From positions 53,362 to 85,361 of the forward strand of contig NZ_NVQC01000036.1 in the NCBI RefSeq assembly GCF_003044035.1: DNA of 32,000 nt, written 5' to 3'. Positions 4,032 through 30,501 of this stretch are shown here, in pieces; positions within the stretch are counted from its first letter, which is position 1; the number at the start of each line of letters is the position of its first letter. The notes below the pieces were generated by a model, which saw nothing but the letters and a program-made list of their open reading frames with translations, was not told the DNA's origin and did no database searches. The position numbers were made by a program, and so were the translations under genes. The stretch comes from Candidatus Methylomirabilis limnetica (lineage in GTDB: Bacteria; Methylomirabilota; Methylomirabilia; Methylomirabilales; Methylomirabilaceae).

Positions 4032-4291
4032 GTGACGTGGAAGGGGGCTGCGCTGCCCTTCCTCACCTTCCCCCGCGAGAATCGGAGAGGATGTCGTCGG
4101 CCGTCTTCGGCGGACAACGACGGCGTTGCGCCGGCGGAGCCGTCACCCGACCATCCCTCATTATTCAGCTTGCTGATAGCTGACATCTGATCATCGATGT
4201 GATAAGGCATTGCTTTCGATGACTGGAAGTAACTAATCCGCCCTCCTGGGAGTCCACATTACGGAGGCAACGATCCGGCTAACGATGAGTT

Positions 4292-4380
4292 CAGCGGGCG
4301 GCGTTTACGCCATCCCTGGAATGATTTGTTTGGCACATCCTCTTTGTGTATCAAACCTCAATGGTCGCTGTCCCTATTTT
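4292..4380 (-). repeat. About 89-bp repeat family, copy D, ending in AATGGTCGCTGTCCCTATTTT
   Basis: It aligns in modules with the copies at 22944, 25912, 27647 and 23806. The last 13 nt equal the MITE right terminus. It ends 7 nt before the stop codon of the minus-strand gene at 4388. Confidence 0.65.
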
Positions 4381-4387
4381 AAGAACT

Positions 4388-4735
4388 TTATCGTCTTTGG
4401 CGCGGTGTCTTGCCAGGCTGACACTGAGGATCAGGATTTGCGGATCGCTGTTTCAATAGCTCGCTAATCGTTCCCCTGAGCTTCATACATTGGATCGCAG
4501 TGTCGATGAATGGCTGGGCCAGTTTTGACGAGCCCGCTCTGGCCACCTGATCCGCGCCTTGATTGGCGGTAGCGGCCATCCCCTCATAGATACAGTAACG
4601 CTGGGTCAGCACCTGGGTGGTCATACCCTTCAGTTCAGCATACTCCACATGGCAATTCTCGGCCGCCGCTGAGACTCCGGGCAAAAAGGCGAGTAGTACG
4701 CCAAACGCGACACTTGCGCGTACAACGATTCGCAT
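4388..4735 (-). CDS. Small secreted hypothetical protein (signal peptide, four Cys)
   Basis: I chose the ATG at 4735 because GGAGG lies upstream and it begins the signal peptide MRIVVRASVAFGVLLAFLPGVSAAAE. I recognised no family. Confidence 0.5.
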   Translation of the reverse strand: MRIVVRASVAFGVLLAFLPGVSAAAENCHVEYAELKGMTTQVLTQRYCIYEGMAATANQGADQVARAGSSKLAQPFIDTAIQCMKLRGTISELLKQRSANPDPQCQPGKTPRQRR

Positions 4736-5059
4736 GGCCTTACCTCCTGCCGGATCCGATCCGACTGCTATCTGGCCCATAGATATTTACTGTCCCACCT
4801 TGTACCTTGCCATAGCCGACACTCCGCCACCTGGCTGTGCCAGGGCAATACCCTTGACAAAGTCGCCGCAGCGGTCATAAACGGCCATGTGCCCGGGCCA
4901 GCCCGGGCGGCTACCGTCCGGTGGGGGCGGCATCGAGGTCTCAGAATGGCTGTTGTGTTCACTGGGCACGGAGAGAGCGAGTGGAGACCCCTCTAATGCT
5001 TCCTATCGTCAAAAGCGTGGCGGCTGATTTTTACTTTCGGCGTTCTTATATTTTCTCAT

Positions 5060-5096
5060 TTTTAATTGTCGCTGTCCCTATTTTCCTATTTTCCTG
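5060..5096 (-). repeat. Minimal copy of the shared repeat terminus with a reiterated CTATTTT heptamer
   Basis: AATTGTCGCTGTCCCTATTTTCCTATTTTCC was read directly. It lies about 10-20 nt beyond the stop of the PQQ dehydrogenase gene. Confidence 0.5.
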
Positions 5097-6952: not shown

Positions 6953-7248
6953 ATATAGGGACAGACACTCTTTATTGAAATCCTTTCTTGGTCTTCCCTT
7001 CTGCACCACGTGTATTACTCGTCCAGTTTCCTGCGCACCTCCCAGATGAACCCGTCTCTTTGCAGTGGCCGTTCTGTCATCGTGTGCCTTCGAATCGCTG
7101 TCGTTCCGAAAGATCGCCTGGCGATCATTCCCTCGTTGCGTCACATGATACAGGTGGCCGGACGCAACGGTTCGGAGAATCCGTGGCAGGCACGATCATG
7201 ACCGCGGACAGCACGAATCGTCACAATAATAGTGTCTGTCCCTATTTT
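6953..7248 (-). mobile_element. Y1-transposase-derived MITE-like element, copy 2
   Basis: ATATAGGGACAGACACTC ... TAGTGTCTGTCCCTATTTT. The minus-strand remnant reads ...HVTQRGNDRQAIFRNDSDSKAHDDR...KGRPRKDFNKE. It lies between the hydrolase stop and the PQQ-dehydrogenase start. Confidence 0.75.
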
Positions 7249-7363
7249 TACTATTTTTTAATTTTTTACGAGCGTGTAGTTCACTTTATTTTCGATCTCA
7301 CACTACAGCAACCAGGTGTTGATCGCCAACCCGGAGTTACTGCCCTTCATTACGGCCTGATCT

Positions 7364-8919: not shown

Positions 8920-9214
8920 ATATAGGGACAGACACTATTTATTGAAATCCTTTCTTGGTCTTCCCCTCTGCTACACGTGTATTACTCATCCAGTTTCCTG
9001 CGTACCTCCCAGATGATCCCATCCCCCTTCGCAGTGGTCGCTCTGTCATCGCGTGCATTCGAATCGCTGTCGTTCCGAAAGACCGCCTGGCGATCATTCC
9101 CTCGTTGCCTCACAGGATACGGGTGGCCGAATGCAACGGTTTGGGTAATCCGTGGCATGCACGATCATTGCAGCGAACACCACGAATTGTCACGATAGTG
9201 TCTGTCCGTATTTT
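8920..9214 (-). mobile_element. Y1-transposase-derived MITE-like element, copy 3 (best preserved)
   Basis: ATATAGGGACAGACACTA ... TAGTGTCTGTCCGTATTTT. On the minus strand there is an uninterrupted 58-codon remnant, MPRITQTVAFGHPYPVRQRGNDRQAVFRNDSDSNARDDRATTAKGDGIIWEVRRKLDE. Confidence 0.75.
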
Positions 9215-9230
9215 CTATTTTACTATTTTA

Positions 9231-9355
9231 CGATCTGATGCGGGTGAGATCGACGGCTGCGTCGAACATCGCCATGGAAAGGCGGTCATGCCGCTCGTTG
9301 CCCGCCGGGTCAGGTCGTGGGCGAAGTACTTCGCGTGGTGAGGGGTGAGGCTCAT
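9231..9355 (-). pseudogene. 5' fragment of an SNF2-type helicase gene, frameshifted and cut off by the MITE copy 3 end
   Basis: A hand translation of the minus strand from the ATG at 9355 gives MSLTPHHAKYFAHDLTRRA. After a 1-nt shift it reads DRLSMAMFDAAVDLTRIRS. I recall this as the N-terminus of SNF2-family helicases (M.LTPHQAKYFA.ELTRR....L...L.DA.VDLNPHQ). The fragment is under 60 aa and so is absent from the ORF track. Confidence 0.5.
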
Positions 9356-9415
9356 CGTCGTCGATATCTCAGTCGTCATAGCGTGGTGTTTTTGCGATGC
9401 CGGAAACCGCTACGC
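9354..9415 (+). pseudogene. 62-nt fragment of a vapC 5' end
   Basis: It matches 460-521 at 58 of 62 positions in my manual alignment. It encodes IVVDISVVIAWCFCDAGNRYA and has no remaining gene body. Confidence 0.7.
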
Positions 9416-13854: not shown

Positions 13855-13923
13855 GGGCGCAGCAAGCGGCGCCCCTACGCAGCCTACACCAAACCCCCCG
13901 TTCCCCCCTTTCGTAAAGGGGGG
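13855..13923. repeat. GC-rich hairpin repeats in the mutase / Fe-S gene spacer
   Basis: GGGCGCAGCAAGCGGCGCCCCTAC (13855-13878) is identical to 19308-19331. CCCCCCTTT-CGT-AAAGGGGGG (13903-13923) recurs in the same form at 15986-16006. Confidence 0.6.
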
Positions 13924-13976
13924 TTGGGGGGATTTGCACCTCGCACCCCCGCTTTTGCAGGGGCAGGCTTCGCACT

Positions 13977-15953
13977 TTACATATCCATACTTTGCGCCAT
14001 CAGCTCTGCTACGTCAAGCGGTCTGGTCCGCCCTATCGCATCCTTGACCTTCAGCGCGTCCTCGAACATGATCAGGCAATAGGGACAGGCGCTCGCCAGC
14101 ACCTGCGGCTCAAGGGCCAGTGCCTCTTCGGTCCGTTCCCAACTTACGCGCTTGCCGATCTTCTCCTCAAACCACATCAACCCGCCCCCCGCACCGCAGC
14201 AGAAAGCGCCCTCACGACATCGGTCCATCTCCTTGACCACAAGCCCAGGGATCGCACCAAGAAGTTGCCTGGGTGGATCGTAGATACCGTTATGTCGTCC
14301 GAGATAGCAAGGGTCATGGAACGACACGACGCCATCTATCGGCTTCTCTGGCCGCAGGCGCCCCTCCTTCACCAGGTCGGCCAACATCTGCGTGTGATGG
14401 ACGACCTCGTAACTGCCTCCCAGCTTGGGGTATTCATTCTTGAGCGTGTTGAAACCGTGCGGGCAGGTAGTGACGATCTTCTTGATGCCATACCCGTTCA
14501 GGATGGCGATATTCTCTTTAGCCAGCGCCTGGAATAGGTACTCGTTTCCGATCCGGCGGGCCGGGTCACCCGTGCATCGCTCCTCTTCCCCCAGGATCGC
14601 GAAATCGACTCCGGCGCGTTGTAGGAGCTTCGCGAAGGCCGCCGCCACTTGCTGATTCCGCTCATCAAAGGCTGCGGCGCAGCCGACCCAGTACAGTATC
14701 TCCGGTGGACCGTTCTCGGCCACGGTCTTCACGCCGAGCCCCTTTGCCCAATCGGTCCTGGAGGCCGACGTACCACGGAACGGATGGCCCCGCTCCTCCA
14801 GACTCCGCAGGGCCTGCTGCATCGTCTCCGGAAAGTTGGCCTCCTCCATCACCAGATGGCGACGCATCTCGATGATCTTTGGGATCGGCTCGATGAAGAT
14901 CGGGCACTCCTGATGGCAGGCGCCACAGGTGGTGCACGCCCACAGGACGTCGTGGGAGATCACCTCACCGACCATCTTTCTGGACTCATCTCCGTCGGCA
15001 ACCAGGCGCATGTGATCTCGCAGATCGATGATGACGCCTTTAGGGGTCAGTGGCTTACCGGTCGCCCAGGCCGGGCAGGCCTGTTGACAGCGGCCACACT
15101 CGGTGCAGGCCTCGAGGTCGAGGAGATCTTTCCATGTAAACTGGTCAATCGCTCCAGCGCCAAAATGCGCAGCTCGATCCAGGTCGATCGTCCGCAGCAC
15201 CCCGGAGCCCTCCTGGTTCTTCAGCAAGATGTTGGCGGCAGCAGACGTGACGTGCATACCCACCCCATAGGGGAGAAGAGCGATGAAGGTGAAGGCCATG
15301 GCGGCATGGAACCACCAGAGGACTTGATGGAGGGCAACCTGCTGGGTCTGTTCAGTCCCGCGAAACAGGACGGATGCCAGCCAGCCGCCAGGCGACCAGC
15401 GCCCCCATGGATCTGCCGTGGCCGCGATCCGAAGCCCCTCAATCAGAAACCCGGTCACCAGGCTGATGAGAAGCAGTGCCAGCAGAGCGTCGTAACTCTT
15501 GGCCTTACGAGGCAGCAGAAGCCGATCGGGTTTAAGGCCATAGCGCCGGGCGAGCGCCATCAGCACGCCGACAATGGCCACCAGCCCGAACAGATCGACG
15601 GTCAGCGACATGAAGTAGAGGTAGAAGCTCCCGCGCAGAGTCGGGATACCGAGATAGTCCTGGAGGGCCACGAGGCAGGTGGCGATAAAGAGGATGGCAA
15701 ATCCCCAGGAGATCGAGCGGTGGAGCAGTCCTGAGAGCGTGTCCTTGGCGATTCGCCGCTGCAAGACGGCATCCTCTACAACGCCTTTGAGCCGGTCCCA
15801 CATACTACCCAAGACCGCAGCAGGCTCCCCCATGAGTATCATGCGGGTATGCCGGTAGATGCCGTAGAGCCAGACGACCAGGAAGGGAAAGAACAGCAGG
15901 TACAGGAACAGGTGCCCCGGGATGTTCCAGTAGATCTCGCGCATGGGGATCAT
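13977..15953 (-). CDS. Membrane-anchored Fe-S oxidoreductase with CCG domains (HdrD/GlpC/DUF224-like partner of EtfAB)
   Basis: It has N-terminal TM helices, two ferredoxin motifs (CTECGRCQQACP and CTTCGACHQECP) and Cys-rich CCG-type segments (FHDPCYLGRHNG, FCCGAGGG, SACPYCLIMF). The start is uncertain: the TTG at 15974, or the ATG at 15953 or 15944. Confidence 0.75.
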   Translation of the reverse strand: MIPMREIYWNIPGHLFLYLLFFPFLVVWLYGIYRHTRMILMGEPAAVLGSMWDRLKGVVEDAVLQRRIAKDTLSGLLHRSISWGFAILFIATCLVALQDYLGIPTLRGSFYLYFMSLTVDLFGLVAIVGVLMALARRYGLKPDRLLLPRKAKSYDALLALLLISLVTGFLIEGLRIAATADPWGRWSPGGWLASVLFRGTEQTQQVALHQVLWWFHAAMAFTFIALLPYGVGMHVTSAAANILLKNQEGSGVLRTIDLDRAAHFGAGAIDQFTWKDLLDLEACTECGRCQQACPAWATGKPLTPKGVIIDLRDHMRLVADGDESRKMVGEVISHDVLWACTTCGACHQECPIFIEPIPKIIEMRRHLVMEEANFPETMQQALRSLEERGHPFRGTSASRTDWAKGLGVKTVAENGPPEILYWVGCAAAFDERNQQVAAAFAKLLQRAGVDFAILGEEERCTGDPARRIGNEYLFQALAKENIAILNGYGIKKIVTTCPHGFNTLKNEYPKLGGSYEVVHHTQMLADLVKEGRLRPEKPIDGVVSFHDPCYLGRHNGIYDPPRQLLGAIPGLVVKEMDRCREGAFCCGAGGGLMWFEEKIGKRVSWERTEEALALEPQVLASACPYCLIMFEDALKVKDAIGRTRPLDVAELMAQSMDM

Positions 15954-15972: not shown

Positions 15973-16018
15973 AAATCCCCACGCGCCCCCCTTTTGTAAA
16001 GGGGGGATGGGAGGATTT
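15973..16018. repeat. Extended GC-rich hairpin
   Basis: The inner stem is CCCCCCTTT/AAAGGGGGG (15986-16006), flanked by AAATCCCC ... GGGAGGATTT. It has the same core as 13903-13923. Confidence 0.55.
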
Positions 16019-16055
16019 CGTACCTCGCGCTGCAACCCTCGAATCTCGAACATTT

Positions 16056-17196: not shown

Positions 17197-17997
17197 TTAA
17201 ATCAGCTTGATCTCGCGCAGCTTGACCGCCAGGTTCGCGGCTTTTTCCTCCGGCGTATTCCCCTCGATCATCTCGCACCTGGACTCCTTGACCGGGATAT
17301 AGACATCGGTGATCTCGACCCTGGCTGCGCCGGCGCCGATCTTCTCCAGGTCAAGCCCAAGATCCGCTGCCTTCCAGACGGGGATCATCTTCTTGGCAGC
17401 CGCCATAATATCTTTCAGTTTAGCGTAGCGGGCGGTGTTCGTCTCGTCAGAGCTGATGGCGGCAAGGAACGGGGTCTTGGCTTCGATCAGTTCGTACCCA
17501 TCCTCGACCACTCGACGGACGACCACCTGTCCATCCTTTACCTCGATTCGGGTCACATATCCGACGTACCCGATCCCGAGCTCCTCGGCCAGGAAGCCAG
17601 GGACAGCCCTATCAGCCCAATCCCCCGACTCACAGCCGGTCAGGATCAGGTCATATGCGCCTGCCTTGCAGATCGTTTTCGCCAGGACATGGGCAATCCC
17701 TTGCTGGTCTGACCCCGCGAGAAGCGGATCATTGACCAGGATTGCCTCGTCGGCGCCCATCGACAGGGCGCTTTTCAGCGCTGCGATCGTCGTTGCCCCT
17801 CCGACGCTGATGGCCGTCACCTTGGCGCCCTGCTTCTCCTTAAGTTTGATGGCCACCTCGAGGGCATTGGCGTCGTAGGGGCTGATGACCAGCGGGTTAT
17901 TCCCCTGGACCTGCCGCTTGGTCCTGGGATCGATCTTAAACTGACTCATCGGGACCTCAGGATCGATAATCTGCTTGATGCACACAATGATGTTCAT
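17197..17997 (-). CDS. etfB: Electron transfer flavoprotein beta subunit
   Basis: 266 aa from the ATG at 17997 (MNIIVCIKQIIDPE). The longer track ORF starts at a TTG inside the heptamer array. Confidence 0.9.
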   Translation of the reverse strand: MNIIVCIKQIIDPEVPMSQFKIDPRTKRQVQGNNPLVISPYDANALEVAIKLKEKQGAKVTAISVGGATTIAALKSALSMGADEAILVNDPLLAGSDQQGIAHVLAKTICKAGAYDLILTGCESGDWADRAVPGFLAEELGIGYVGYVTRIEVKDGQVVVRRVVEDGYELIEAKTPFLAAISSDETNTARYAKLKDIMAAAKKMIPVWKAADLGLDLEKIGAGAARVEITDVYIPVKESRCEMIEGNTPEEKAANLAVKLREIKLI

Positions 17998-18004
17998 ATG
18001 GTTG

Positions 18005-18074
18005 GGTTCACCGTTCAACGTTCAACGTTCAAGGTTCAAGGTTCAAGGTTCAAGGTTCAAGGTTCAAGGTTCAA
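18005..18074. repeat. Tandem heptanucleotide array, 10 units (GGTTCAC, 3x CGTTCAA, 6x GGTTCAA)
   Basis: Units were counted directly from the sequence. The array starts 8 nt upstream of the etfB ATG, in the acd-etfB spacer. Confidence 0.85.
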
Positions 18075-18114
18075 GCCACGTGAGGGCGCCCACGAGGGGC
18101 GCCCCTACGCCGCG

Positions 18115-22851: not shown

Positions 22852-22943
22852 GCTCAACAATGAGATTACAAGATACGGGGAGCAGCCGCGAAGCGGTCGG
22901 TTTCGTGCCCATGGTTCTCCCGGATCGTAACGACGGGAAGGGA

Positions 22944-23030
22944 CACCGGCGCGGCGAAGCCATGTCCGAGTTGATGCCTTGGTGATCAGCCGATGCAGGC
23001 AAATCGAAACAAATGGCCACTGTCCCTATT
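22944..23030 (-). repeat. About 89-bp repeat family, copy A
   Basis: CACCGGCGCGGCGAAGCCATGTCCGAGTTGATGCCTTGGTGATCAGCCGATGCAGGC...AAATGGCCACTGTCCCTATT. It starts 35 nt beyond the stop of the VIT gene. Confidence 0.7.
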
Positions 23031-23805: not shown

Positions 23806-23850
23806 GAGCGGCGGCGTTTACGCCATCCAAATGGTCACCGTCCCTATTTT
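23806..23850 (-). repeat. Deletion derivative (45 bp) of the 89-bp repeat family, copy E
   Basis: GAGCGGCGGCGTTTACGCCATCC joins directly to AAATGGTCACCGTCCCTATTTT. These are the two end modules of copy D with the middle missing. Confidence 0.6.
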
Positions 23851-24488: not shown

Positions 24489-24789
24489 ATATAGGGACAG
24501 ACACTCTTTATTGAAATCCTTTTTTGATCTTCCCCTCTGCTACACGTGCCTTATTCGTCCAGTGTCATGCGCGCCTCCCAGATGAACTCGTCTCTTCGCA
24601 GTAGTCGCTCTGTCATCGTGCGCATTCGTATCTCTGTCGTGCCGAAAGACTGCCTGGCGATCATTCCCTCGTTGCCTCACAGGATACGGGTGGCCGGATA
24701 CAACGGTTCGATCAATCCGTAGCGGGCACGATCATGACCGTACACACCACGAATTCCACGATACGCGTGCGCGTGTCTGTCCCTATGTT
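24489..24789 (-). mobile_element. Y1-transposase-derived MITE-like element, copy 4
   Basis: ATATAGGGACAGACACTC ... GCGTGTCTGTCCCTATGTT. The right end lies 3 nt from the stop codon of the 167-aa gene, and the left end lies 62 nt upstream of the 130-aa gene start. Confidence 0.75.
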
Positions 24790-25762: not shown

Positions 25763-25911
25763 CGTCAGAAGGATACGCTACGCCACATCGGTCCTGAAGG
25801 GAAGGACAATTCTGTCGGAGGACCGGCTGGCTTCCGGCACGAGCACCCACGCGATGCCTCGTTGATGGCCTCCGCACGCCGGGAAGTCATCGCGACTCCT
25901 CCGCCCGCGCC

Positions 25912-25998
25912 AGCAGCGCGGCAAAGCCGTGTCAGAGTTGATGCCCTGGTGATCAGCCGACGTAGGTGAATCTACACAAATGGTCGCTGTCCCTATTT
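25912..25998 (-). repeat. About 89-bp repeat family, copy B
   Basis: It aligns with copies A and C and ends AAATGGTCGCTGTCCCTATTT, 19 nt beyond the stop of the OYE gene. Confidence 0.7.
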
Positions 25999-26017: not shown

Positions 26018-27118
26018 TTATGCGGAAGAAGAGGGGTGATATGGCGCATAGTCCGTATATCCTTCAGGCCCAGATGTATGCCATCGCGACATATCTTCAG
26101 CAGGGTTGACAGGCCAATTATTCCGGAATCGTTCGGGTAAGTCAGGATTTGTGATAAAAGGTCGGCCAAAGGCGATCATGTCTGCATGGCGTGCTGCGAT
26201 GCGCTCTTCTGCTGTTTCTTTGGTATAACCGCAGTTTCCAATAATGATGCCGTGAAACAGTGGCCTGAATTCCGCTAAGGTCATCTGTACACCTTTCCCA
26301 TGAAAACCAAAAGCCAGCCCATCCATGATATGCAGATAACCAAGTTTCAATGCATTTAACTTTTCGGTAGCATAAAGATACGTCTGCCTAAAGTCATCAC
26401 TGCCCATATCATTAAACGCGCCGTTTGGCGAGATGCGGGCCCCGACCTGTTCCGGCGGCCAGACCTCAAGCACCGCTTCCAGCACTTCTTTAAAAAAACG
26501 GAATCTGTTTTCAAGACTGTCACCATATTGATCGTCGCGGTGATTGGTTTGCGAATCAAGGAATTGATTGATCAAATAGCCATTGGCGCCGTGCACTTCT
26601 ACCCCGGAAAACCCGGCGGCCTTGGCATTCTTTGCCGCCTTACGGTAATCATTCACGGTGGTCTGAATGTCAGCCAATGACAGTGGTCGTGGAGTTTCAT
26701 ATGGCTTATTGCCGAGAGGGGTGCGGATGTGATCACCGTTCAGCTTCACAGCAGAAGCGGAGACAGGAAGGTCACCATGATGGAAATCACTGTGCGAGGC
26801 CCTACCGCAATGCCATAGCTGAAGAAATATGGGCGTGCCTGTTGGTGTGACTTTGTCCGTGACCTTCCGCCAGCCCTCGACCATCTCATCAGTAAAGATT
26901 CCCGGAGAGTCAATCCAGCCAATGCCCTGTTGTGAAATCACTGTCGCTTCGGTTATCAGAAGCCCGGCACTTGCTCGCTGGTAATAATGCTCTGCCATAA
27001 GATCATTCGGCACGCGCTCCTTACCAGCACGCCCCCTTGTCAGCGGTGCCATGACGATGCGGTTTTTCAGGTGCAGTGTGCCCATTGAGAGTGAGTCAAA
27101 TAACCTGCTGCTTTTCAT
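26018..27118 (-). CDS. Old Yellow Enzyme family NADH:flavin oxidoreductase (alkene / N-ethylmaleimide reductase-like)
   Basis: 366 aa from the ATG at 27118, with AGGAG 5 nt upstream. It has MAPLTRGRA, FLQLWHCGRASH, HGANGYLINQFL and AFGRPFITNPDLP. Confidence 0.9.
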   Translation of the reverse strand: MKSSRLFDSLSMGTLHLKNRIVMAPLTRGRAGKERVPNDLMAEHYYQRASAGLLITEATVISQQGIGWIDSPGIFTDEMVEGWRKVTDKVTPTGTPIFLQLWHCGRASHSDFHHGDLPVSASAVKLNGDHIRTPLGNKPYETPRPLSLADIQTTVNDYRKAAKNAKAAGFSGVEVHGANGYLINQFLDSQTNHRDDQYGDSLENRFRFFKEVLEAVLEVWPPEQVGARISPNGAFNDMGSDDFRQTYLYATEKLNALKLGYLHIMDGLAFGFHGKGVQMTLAEFRPLFHGIIIGNCGYTKETAEERIAARHADMIAFGRPFITNPDLPERFRNNWPVNPAEDMSRWHTSGPEGYTDYAPYHPSSSA

Positions 27119-27646
27119 GTAATCTCCTACTCTTAGTCTTTGCGCTATAGATCTTTGCAGGAGAATGCGGGGCTGAGCCGGCCTAAGCGGCCGCATCGCG
27201 TGCCGCCACGTTGATGGATGGGTGAGGCGCCATCACTGCCAACAACGCGGTTCAGGAATTACACTTCTAAGAGGACACACCCTCCATCTGTTGTGAGTGA
27301 TCCGTGAAGTTCGCCAGGCGGGCGAGTCGCGTCATGACCGGCATCACGCCATACGCCCAACGCGTGGTCATACAGACGGCCGCTGAGCCTACACACGTCC
27401 TCCGAGTAGGGATGAGTTTTCCTCCACGTGGAGATGTATCGGTATCCAGTAGGACGCGTGTCGATCGTGTGTATTCACCGGTTATTGGGTCGATGCTGAG
27501 CGTACGTTCCTCGGCCATTCCTTCGAGCCCCTTGATTGGCGTCTACCGTGTCCGGCGTTCTGTGCTCAGGGTGTTGCAGTCGATCATCGTAGATTTCGTC
27601 ATTCCATGCCCGGTATGTCAAGGAGATGGCGCCGAACAGCGAGCAT

Positions 27647-27735
27647 CACCGGCGCGGCGACGCCGTGTCCGAGTTGATGCCCTGGTTATCATCCGATGCA
27701 GCTGAATCTACACAAATGGTTGCTATCCCGATTTT
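27647..27735 (-). repeat. About 89-bp repeat family, copy C (slightly diverged terminus CTATCCCGATTTT)
   Basis: CACCGGCGCGGCGACGCCGTGTCCGAGTTGATGCCCTGGTTATCATCCGATGCAGC...AAATGGTTGCTATCCCGATTTT. Confidence 0.65.
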
Positions 27736-30015: not shown

Positions 30016-30207
30016 GAGTGCGTCAAGAAGATGCCTGCCCACGTCATCCGCACACGCGTCATGCGGCATCCTCATATTCCGGCACGTAGTGAGCCTCTTC
30101 ATATTCACCCACCTGACTATCGGCGTACACGAGCAGCGGGTCTGCTTCCTCCGTGACCGGCGGCCCTCTTCCTCGTTGCGGCTGTCGCTTCGGAATCGGC
30201 GTGCTTA

Positions 30208-30501
30208 ATATAGAGACAAACACTCTTTATTAAAATCCTTTGGGTCTTCCCCTCTGCAACACGTGTATGACTCGTCCAGTATCCTGCGCACCTCACAGAT
30301 GAACCCGTCTCTTTGCAGCAGCTGCTCTGTCATCGTGCGCATTCAAGGCTCTGTCGTTCCGAAAGACCGCCTGGCGATCATTCCTTCGTTGCCTCACATA
30401 ATACGGGTGACCAAACGCAACGGTTCGGGTCATCCGTGGCATGCACGTTCATGACCGCGAATACCACGAATTGTCACGATACTAATGTCTGTCCCTATTT
30501 T
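30208..30501 (-). mobile_element. Y1-transposase-derived MITE-like element, copy 5 (most diverged left TIR)
   Basis: ATATAGAGACAAACACTC ... TAATGTCTGTCCCTATTTT. The interior is collinear with the other copies. Confidence 0.7.

Follow-up and report, generated by a model that had tools for sequence, protein, structure and literature searches.

What are the repeats of about 89 bp that lie between the genes of Candidatus Methylomirabilis limnetica? The question is raised by a 32,000-nucleotide stretch of the genome of this bacterium (contig NZ_NVQC01000036.1, positions 53,362 to 85,361 of the forward strand; hereinafter the window), in which an initial annotation, made from the sequence alone, had picked out six such sequences, here designated A-F. 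All six were found at the coordinates given there. Our comparisons of sequence indicate that the units are probably non-autonomous, decaying derivatives of a Y1 (HUH tyrosine) transposon with terminal inverted repeats (TIRs), namely miniature inverted-repeat transposable elements (MITEs) or "TIR repeats" of the TIRYT type. The initial annotation, which considered that they may be REP-like (repetitive extragenic palindromic) substrates or derivatives of a Y1 enzyme, had essentially the right class; the units are tied to Y1 elements by their terminus.

The shared terminus is the end of an autonomous Y1 transposon

The 3' module shared by the units, AAATGGTCGCTGTCCCTATTT, is the canonical TIR of a transposon of ~750 bp. 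In a scan of one genome per species, the exact 20-mer AATGGTCRCYGTCCCTATTT occurs at at least 120 genome loci in many phyla. The loci listed include Omnitrophota, Nitrospirota, Planctomycetota (including Kuenenia), Elusimicrobia, Clostridia, Desantisbacteria and Desulfobacterota, together with one bin labelled Aenigmatarchaeota, an archaeal assignment that may be contamination. Among the matches listed, on which the counts of pairs and cores rest, left-to-right repeat pairs are of three sizes, with 39 short TIR pairs of 44-74 bp, 12 MITEs of 129-273 bp and 8 long pairs of 744-793 bp, among them full elements; the repeat also occurs as lone copies. Seven of the eight long pairs hold a single open reading frame (ORF) of ~224 aa, two of the seven sharing one gene (locus L026); the eighth (L006) encloses an unrelated ORF.

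The 224-aa ORF reads MPRIARxVxxGYPHHVTQRGNYRQ...NHVHF...RGRPKK with the internal motif GYPHHVTQRGNYRQ, and its stop codon abuts the repeat. Both NHVHF, the HUH motif, and RYVENNPVRA are present in the protein, which matches the Pfam family Y1_Tnp (PF01797) at 8.8e-16. It scores 65 bits against the NCBIfam model REP_Tyr_transpos (REP-associated tyrosine transposase), short of the cutoff of 80, and only 25 bits against the NCBIfam IS200 model. The ~100-aa C-terminal extension has no Pfam hit at E <= 0.01, and a PDB sequence search with the Y1 protein gave no match. The autonomous element consists of the 21-nt TIR AAATAGGGACAGCGACCATTT, a short promoter region, the Y1 gene and, immediately past its stop codon, the inverted copy of the repeat. 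Several mid-sized elements retain the start or the end of the Y1 ORF and are internal-deletion derivatives like the window MITEs M1-M5 described below.

The 20-nt end AATGGTCGCTGTCCCTATTT is almost invariant across metagenome-assembled genomes (MAGs) of many phyla (for example L005:1698-1749, L010:2711-2775 and L019:5377-6123; loci L004-L123). Specifically, exactly AATGGTCG stands before 157 of 191 CTGTCCCTATT cores, in loci selected by a pattern that itself fixes 7/8 of those bases. This near-invariance suggests that the element is often transferred horizontally or that its end is very strongly constrained.

Immediately beyond the end of the element, its final 6-8 nt (CTATTT or CCTATTTT) are in many cases reiterated, in the window at 5085-5092, 7249-7266 and 9215-9230 and also in L006, L009, L032, L090 and L116. 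CTATTT occurs within 40 nt outside 33 of 163 ends, compared with 9 of 163 in the equal stretch inside. This reiteration may have been left behind by slippage, or as a mark of the site of cleavage or the target site.

Copies A-F fall into three groups

The pattern GTSKCTGTCCCTATTT, with up to three mismatches, has 17 matches in the window versus 0.52 expected, a number reached in none of 100 shuffles. Ten lie in five 296-bp MITEs and six in A-F; the last (14077-14092) was set aside as a chance match within a CPYC-coding stretch. A and F have the 13-nt terminus without a mismatch, C and E match it at 12/13 positions and B and D at 11/13; its 16-mer form has 0-1 changes in A, C and F.

The single family of 87-89 bp first described stands for B, C and D, whereas A and E form a separate pair and F is a lone terminal repeat. 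A repeat search of the window grouped B, C and D as one 88-nt family with 83-85% identity, and global alignment gives 81-83%. The identity of A to these three is 60-62% by global alignment and comes mostly from the terminus; with the terminus removed, the interior score is 13, compared with a shuffle mean of 13.6. The 5' and central modules ascribed to A and B/C/D in common are therefore not demonstrable directly. A weak indirect link runs through the metagenomic relative L149, with which GTTC[A/G]GCGGGCGGCG is held in common (2 of 1000 shuffles reach the score). E was correctly seen as a deletion relative and is one of A, having 22 of 23 nt and the terminus in common (0 of 1000 shuffles reach the score). 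The sequence of F, taken for a minimal copy, is present, but it holds nothing beyond the terminal repeat followed by reiterated CCTATTTT. B, C and D would represent one derivative of ~106 nt, composed of the right terminal repeat, an 18-nt subterminal piece, an imperfect palindrome and a degenerate left repeat, and A and E a second, smaller one.

All six copies read on the plus strand. Copy A (4289-4380) starts with GTTCAGCGGGCGGCG (4289-4303), contains a small hairpin, GGCG-TTTA-CGCC (4300-4311), in an otherwise diverged interior, and closes with the terminal repeat CAATGGTCGCTGTCCCTATTTT (4359-4380), 8 nt from the stop of a minus-strand ORF (4388-4780). Copy F (5063-5092) comprises the terminal repeat TAATTGTCGCTGTCCCTATTTT (5063-5084) and the reiterated octamer (5085-5092). 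Copy B (22938-23030) has a left remnant AAGGGACA (22938-22945), a palindromic interior, the subterminal piece GATCAGCCGATGCAGGCA (22984-23001) and the right terminal repeat AAATGGCCACTGTCCCTATT (23011-23030). Copy E (23806-23850) joins AGCGGCGGCGTTTACGCCATCC (23807-23828), the part common with A, to the terminal repeat AAATGGTCACCGTCCCTATTTT (23829-23850). Copy C (25890-25998), in which family homology is clear from ~25911, has its subterminal piece at 25951-25968 and its terminal repeat, AAATGGTCGCTGTCCCTATTT, at 25978-25998. Twenty nucleotides separate copy C from the stop of a minus-strand gene of the Oxidored_FMN (NADH:flavin oxidoreductase) family (26018-27196), and an orthologous copy exists in metagenome locus L135. 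Copy D (27631-27735) has a degenerate left terminal repeat GCCGAACAGCGAGCAT (27631-27646), a palindromic interior, the subterminal piece (27687-27704) and the right terminal repeat AAATGGTTGCTATCCCGATTTT (27714-27735).

Left end and interior of B, C and D

The B/C/D unit extends about 17-20 nt further 5' than first annotated, which brings its length to ~106 nt; in the multiple alignment, the homology of D with the metagenome loci L124 and L163 begins at GCCGAACRGCGAGCAT (GCCGAAC). The units had been described as lacking an obvious inverted partner end, and one-ended derivatives had been named as one possibility. This holds for C and F, but B and D keep remnants of such an end. Specifically, AGGGACA in the left remnant of B pairs exactly, as a 7-mer, with TGTCCCT of its right end, and the left remnant of D (GAACAGCGAGCAT) matches the inverted terminal repeat at 11 of 16 positions. 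At the homologous left boundary, the left stretches of D, L124 and L163 match the inverted terminal repeat at 9-11 of 16 positions. The remnants in B and D would jointly reconstruct a left repeat, for which the evidence is modest.

The interior of B, C and D is an imperfect palindrome, with a small hairpin, CGCGGC-GAA-GCCGTG, kept in all three. An origin of this interior from the 296-bp MITEs or from the coding ends of full-length elements was rejected, as the similarity is not above that of shuffles and nhmmer aligns the terminus alone. By eye, ...RCRQI* resembles the C-terminus ...RGRPKK*, a likeness too short to test.

Local 296-bp MITEs carry a variant of the repeat

The window also contains five copies of a 296-bp MITE family, M1-M5, and their proposed descent from a Y1 element is borne out. 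Translation reveals the N-terminal remnant ...GHLYHVTQRGNDRQAIF, and with the full-length Y1 query, tblastn matched the N-terminal 38-52 residues in five of five, always on the minus strand. M1 (1016-1616) has the variant TIRs ATATAGGGACAGACACT and GCGTCTGTCCCTATTT around its minus-strand Y1 remnant. M2 (6953-7248, 296 bp), of the same variant-TIR family, yields the minus-strand translation ...LPRILRTVASGHLYHVTQRGNDRQAIF..., ending in ...KGRPRK just inside the far repeat. The remaining family members are M3 (8920-9214), M4 (24489-24789) and M5 (30206-30501), likewise on the minus strand. That these MITEs and the 89-bp units were substrates of the same Y1 enzyme, as had been suggested, is doubtful: the units have the canonical ATGGTCGCTGTCCC of other phyla, and the local MITEs the variant ATAGTGTCTGTCCC.

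M1 is double the length of its four relatives owing to two nested insertions, at 1132-1273 and ~1440-1597. Part of the first (palindrome CCCCTCCCCCCTCGAGGGGGAGG) recurs in L149 at 91-96% identity, and by this recurrence of sequence the insertion is taken to be a third repeat family. A stretch of 61 nt that codes for the N-terminus of a PIN-domain (VapC-like) toxin occurs twice, at 461-521 and 9355-9415, with 95% identity; the two stretches adjoin M1 and M3, respectively, and a Phd/YefM antitoxin gene precedes the first PIN copy in L001.

The units show no sign of a coding or RNA function

The initial annotation had argued against a protein-coding element, and we agree. Variable sites are spread 12/12/10 over the three codon phases, and no frame is free of stops in all copies; a protein-coding unit was rejected on the lack of codon periodicity and the stops in all frames. 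A multicopy structured small RNA, the other function put forward for the units, is not supported either. Rfam gave no hits in the window at the gathering threshold, and nothing overlapping the elements in seven related loci at E <= 1. Fold stability on either strand lies at z -0.07 to -1.6 relative to shuffles, and none of the 20 predicted consensus pairs in B, C and D shows compensatory changes. Copies B, C, D and E are free of overlap with terminator-like or promoter-like sites, and a terminator or promoter was rejected on that ground. A TnpB/IscB guide-RNA scaffold at a transposon right end was also rejected: the units are not long enough, and the neighbourhood has no gene of this kind.

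It is therefore very improbable that the units are small RNAs, or regulatory or terminator elements of 3' untranslated regions, kept by selection downstream of minus-strand genes, even though A-F are all intergenic, in one orientation and shortly past the stop codons of minus-strand genes, and the CGCGGC-GAA-GCCGTG hairpin persists in every B/C/D copy. Besides the negative searches above, the divergence of one unit from its ortholog equals that of third codon positions, as follows.

Relatives in metagenomes and neutral drift

Most of the 47 loci obtained when metagenomes were scanned with the central module are chance coding matches; five of the 47 (L124, L135, L149, L157 and L163) are true relatives of the units, with two further partial copies in L163 found by nhmmer. 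Counting the window and the related metagenome contigs, unit copies occupy at least eight different loci. Over the part of the window with A, F and M1-M3, loci L001-L003 show 99.5% identity to it, with no large alignment gaps; these strains carry all five elements, and no empty site was found.

L135 is the ortholog of the region around C, with 93.7% identity over 1.7 kb. Copy C and its L135 counterpart are 90-91% identical (terminal repeat, 17/21), the flanking spacers 88-90% and the adjacent gene 94.8%, with differences at 36 of 393 third codon positions (~9%). Because the divergence of C from its ortholog equals that of the third codon positions, copy C appears to drift at about the neutral rate.

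This result bears on the idea that the units are still active substrates, moved by an intact canonical-repeat Y1 gene elsewhere in the genome, as has been proposed for RAYTs (REP-associated tyrosine transposases) and REPINs. The terminal repeat is indeed perfect or nearly so in A, C and F, the intact Y1 genes of other phyla are accompanied by the canonical form of the repeat, and several copies lie inside 32 kb. However, the copies differ by 17-19% among themselves, 1-5 substitutions are present in the terminal repeats of B, D, L135, L157 and L163, divergence in the orthologous pair is neutral, terminal repeat included, and no intact Y1 gene was found by tblastn in the window or the related contigs. 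Present activity of the units is thus improbable.

A structured repeat of other phyla and a possible composite origin

The subterminal 18 nt of B, C and D, TATCAGCCGATGCAGGCA, match TATCTGCCGTTGCGGGCA at 15 of 18 positions, and the 18-nt piece lies at the same distance from the terminal repeat in L004, L024, L062, L070 and, more loosely, L017. The host MAGs of these five loci belong to Desulfobacterota and Nitrospirota. There, the piece is the 3' tail of a structured repeat of 80-130 nt, which is also found without the terminal repeat. Copies of the structured repeat, with the tail CTGTTATCTGCCGTTGCGGGCAG, lie at 679-757, 1247-1316 and 2818-2895 of L004, 85-164, 1322-1400 and 2109-2186 of L070, 1780-1816 and 2159-2238 of L024, 803-882 of L062 and 69-147 of L017; the Y1 terminal repeat stands 11-17 nt past the structured repeat in the five loci. 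The repeat consists of a stem CAGATAAC/GTTATCTG, a stem of ~11 bp whose sequence is wholly different between copies, and an inner hairpin, AAGGGC-GAA-GCCCTT. As judged by eye from translations, it brackets genes of toxin-antitoxin and defence-like kinds, namely hicBA, a gene for a RelE/ParE-like toxin, and a Mrr-like gene with a toxin-antitoxin pair (DUF4258-like and zinc-ribbon MqsA-like).

A covariance model of the structured repeat finds 11 copies, all in the five loci save a weak one in L087 (E 0.52). The covariation is 0.187 versus 0.125 in shuffles (0 of 500 reach the value) and 0.04-0.08 for slid partners, in an alignment fitted by the model, which leans towards the fitted structure; 8 of 11 pairs of the long stem change on both sides. 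No Rfam hit overlaps the repeat, a scan of viral contigs for the module was empty and a literature search gave nothing relevant. The structured repeat may be attC-like, REP-like or an RNA. A frameshifted or truncated Y1 gene of the REP-associated type (...WQGVFGNI / RFWEHMIRDDQDL..YIHYNPVKH...) occupies the start of the L004 contig (1-484), ~200 nt from one copy of the structured repeat; given this proximity, the repeat might be the REP-like partner of that enzyme. A further module match, in L049, was dismissed as chance, as it lies inside an integrase ORF.

Accordingly, the palindrome of B, C and D could be a separate attC-like or REP-like host repeat that stands at a fixed distance beside a lone Y1 terminal repeat and was spread via palindrome recombination or by another enzyme, and not by a Y1 transposase working on two ends. 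Such a composite, in which a palindromic repeat has become joined to a transposon end, is the main rival to descent by internal deletion; we regard it as unlikely. The 18-nt piece TATCWGCCGWTGCRGGCA, a spacer of ~11 nt and the terminal repeat occur together in all five loci, the structured repeat brackets toxin-antitoxin genes and covaries, and it is framed by ...AAC / GTT... like attC, the gene strand of B, C and D ending in GTTCGGC or GTTGGGC. Yet the covariance model finds nothing in the window at E <= 1, the genes beside B, C and D are of an ordinary metabolic kind (VIT family, Oxidored_FMN, GlgC-type nucleotidyl transferase and nitroreductase), and B has the exact AGGGACA partner end. None of the loci examined showed an integron integrase; in L049, a fragment of a tyrosine recombinase adjoins a tRNA, and the module match in that locus is inside coding sequence.

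The units may also be set beside integron attC sites. Like attC, the units are imperfect palindromes of 60-130 nt, framed (by eye) by ...AAC / GTT..., in one orientation and right after ORFs, and the related module of other phyla brackets toxin-antitoxin cassettes, with structure kept while sequence turns over. Unlike in attC arrays, no integrase was seen, the R''/R' consensus (RYYYAAC/GTTRRRY) is only loosely met, the window neighbours are housekeeping genes, and the ~20 nt past GTT are conserved, which is atypical for attC. An integron cassette array in the window was rejected in view of the metabolic neighbours and the lack of an integrase, though each unit trails a minus-strand gene in one orientation. 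We hold it improbable, too, that the unit is an ancient functional module, conserved as far as Desulfobacterota and Nitrospirota, and not debris, with Y1/HUH transposons specifically targeting or recruited to attC-like single-strand hairpins, or with a mobility of cassettes run by a Y1 enzyme in place of an integron integrase.

Several observations weigh against descent of the units from a TIRYT-type element by simple internal deletion. The left-end match has, under a window-wide null, a P of ~0.05 for 11/16 (anywhere within 128 nt) and ~0.2 for 10/16, and the left repeat was not found in C, its ortholog L135, or L157. The interior of B, C and D lacks detectable similarity to the local MITEs or to full-length elements, which confines the demonstrated descent from a Y1 element to the terminus and the subterminal piece. 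The subterminal piece belongs also to a structured repeat that exists separately from the terminal repeat, and hence B, C and D could be a fusion. The test of neutrality covers one orthologous pair of 109 nt. Finally, we know of no TIRYT transposase that has been biochemically tested, and the mechanism is therefore proposed by analogy.

Relation to described classes of repeats

In the initial annotation the family was not recognised as a described one, but the unit does match a known family of insertion sequence (IS) ends, that of the TIRYT/TIRtron class with its TIR repeat families (PMC3733652, PMC6006769). TIRYTs, the genes within TIRtrons, are RAYT-like genes flanked by long TIRs; the TIRs share the motif GGGGWSAS, and there are families of TIR repeats, of moderate abundance, whose members are found single, in dimers or grouped (Di Nocera et al. 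2013, PMC3733652). TIRYTs have since been equated with subclass 2.1 of TnpA-Y1 (Quentin et al. 2018, PMC6006769). In the searchable literature the terms TIRYT and TIRtron occur in these two papers alone, and the 21-nt repeat and the 89-106-nt derivative are absent from searchable papers, sequence searches giving unrelated primers only.

Similarly to TIRtrons, the Y1/HUH gene described here is flanked by long TIRs and not by REP hairpins, and non-coding copies of the repeat are dispersed singly, as dimers and in groups. The repeat contains AGGGACAG, which matches GGGGWSAS at 7 of 8 positions, the first G being replaced by A. A homologue on a P. aeruginosa plasmid, 35% identical and annotated just as "transposase", has 37-38-nt TIRs (ATAAAGGGGACAGATCTATTTTCCC...) with the exact motif GGGGACAG. 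There are also differences: in many uncultivated phyla the repeat hardly varies; the transposase falls below the NCBIfam RAYT cutoff, and its C-terminal half lacks a Pfam hit; the HTH-like (helix-turn-helix) C-terminal extension of TIRYT subclass 2.1 (Bac_DnaA_C, HTH_23, HTH_28) was not found at Pfam E <= 0.01; and B, C and D have an extra palindromic interior and a degraded left end. The kind of element is thus already known, and its 20-nt end is unusually conserved across distant phyla.

Two better-studied classes are related. Like REPs and REPINs (RAYT, TnpA-REP), the units are short intergenic non-coding repeats tied to a Y1 transposase and lying downstream of genes, with a strong orientation bias and with inverted doublets (here the 44-74-bp TIR pairs) that can form hairpins in single-stranded DNA. 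In contrast to them, the units lack the 5' GT[AG]G tetranucleotide that marks the foot of the REP hairpin, the single terminal repeat is not self-complementary (a REP is a self-complementary hairpin of 20-40 nt), and the transposase gene is multicopy and IS-like (~750 bp, many genomes), not single-copy and domesticated. With IS200/IS605 and its PATEs (palindrome-associated transposable elements) and MITEs, the element shares a Pfam PF01797 Y1 transposase, a small size, ends without a visible target-site duplication, and an orientation bias that fits single-strand transposition. The ends of IS200/IS605, however, are dissimilar subterminal hairpins without TIRs, whereas the present element has 21-nt inverted repeats.

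Proposed mechanism

In the reading that we prefer, descent from a TIRYT-type transposon, a Y1 transposase acting in trans would once have mobilised the units. By analogy with IS200/IS605 and REP/RAYT systems, it would act on single-stranded DNA with the two ends, or a palindrome, folded back, and would cut and rejoin without target duplication, none being visible at the ends. The copies would now drift neutrally as intergenic fossils. Single-strand transposition would explain the one orientation of all copies: all 11 elements of the window (A-F and M1-M5) point the same way, co-directional with genes, and the GC skew of the plus strand is weakly negative (-0.03). Orientation and skew fit strand-specific transposition, although selection could also explain them.

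Genomic context and other repeats in the window

The region is ordinary chromosome, with genes for methylmalonyl-CoA mutase, electron transfer flavoprotein (ETF), acyl-CoA dehydrogenase, a nucleotidyl transferase with a GlgC-type domain, an Oxidored_FMN protein, a VIT-family protein and nitroreductase nearby. Two further repeats were observed. A palindrome of G/C runs, CCCCCCTTTCGTAAAGGGGGG, occurs with its flanks in two copies (13888-13935 and 15974-16021), past the stops of neighbouring minus-strand genes, and the related locus L163 contains a similar palindrome. The palindrome of G/C runs probably represents an intergenic repeat of terminator type. The heptamer GGTTCAA forms a tandem array of ~12 copies (17991-18081) at the predicted start of an ETF beta-type gene (17197-18018, minus strand).

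Implications

Both repeat families of the window would belong to one poorly studied class, the Y1 transposons with terminal inverted repeats. For annotation, this means that the 89-bp units are to be masked as decayed MITEs and not called as small-RNA genes. Most worth a further look are the constancy of the 20-nt end across phyla and its link to the structured repeat that flanks cassettes. The near-constant end offers a simple probe for the element and for horizontal transfer in uncultivated lineages, and, as a defined substrate, it would allow a TIRYT transposase to be assayed biochemically for the first time.

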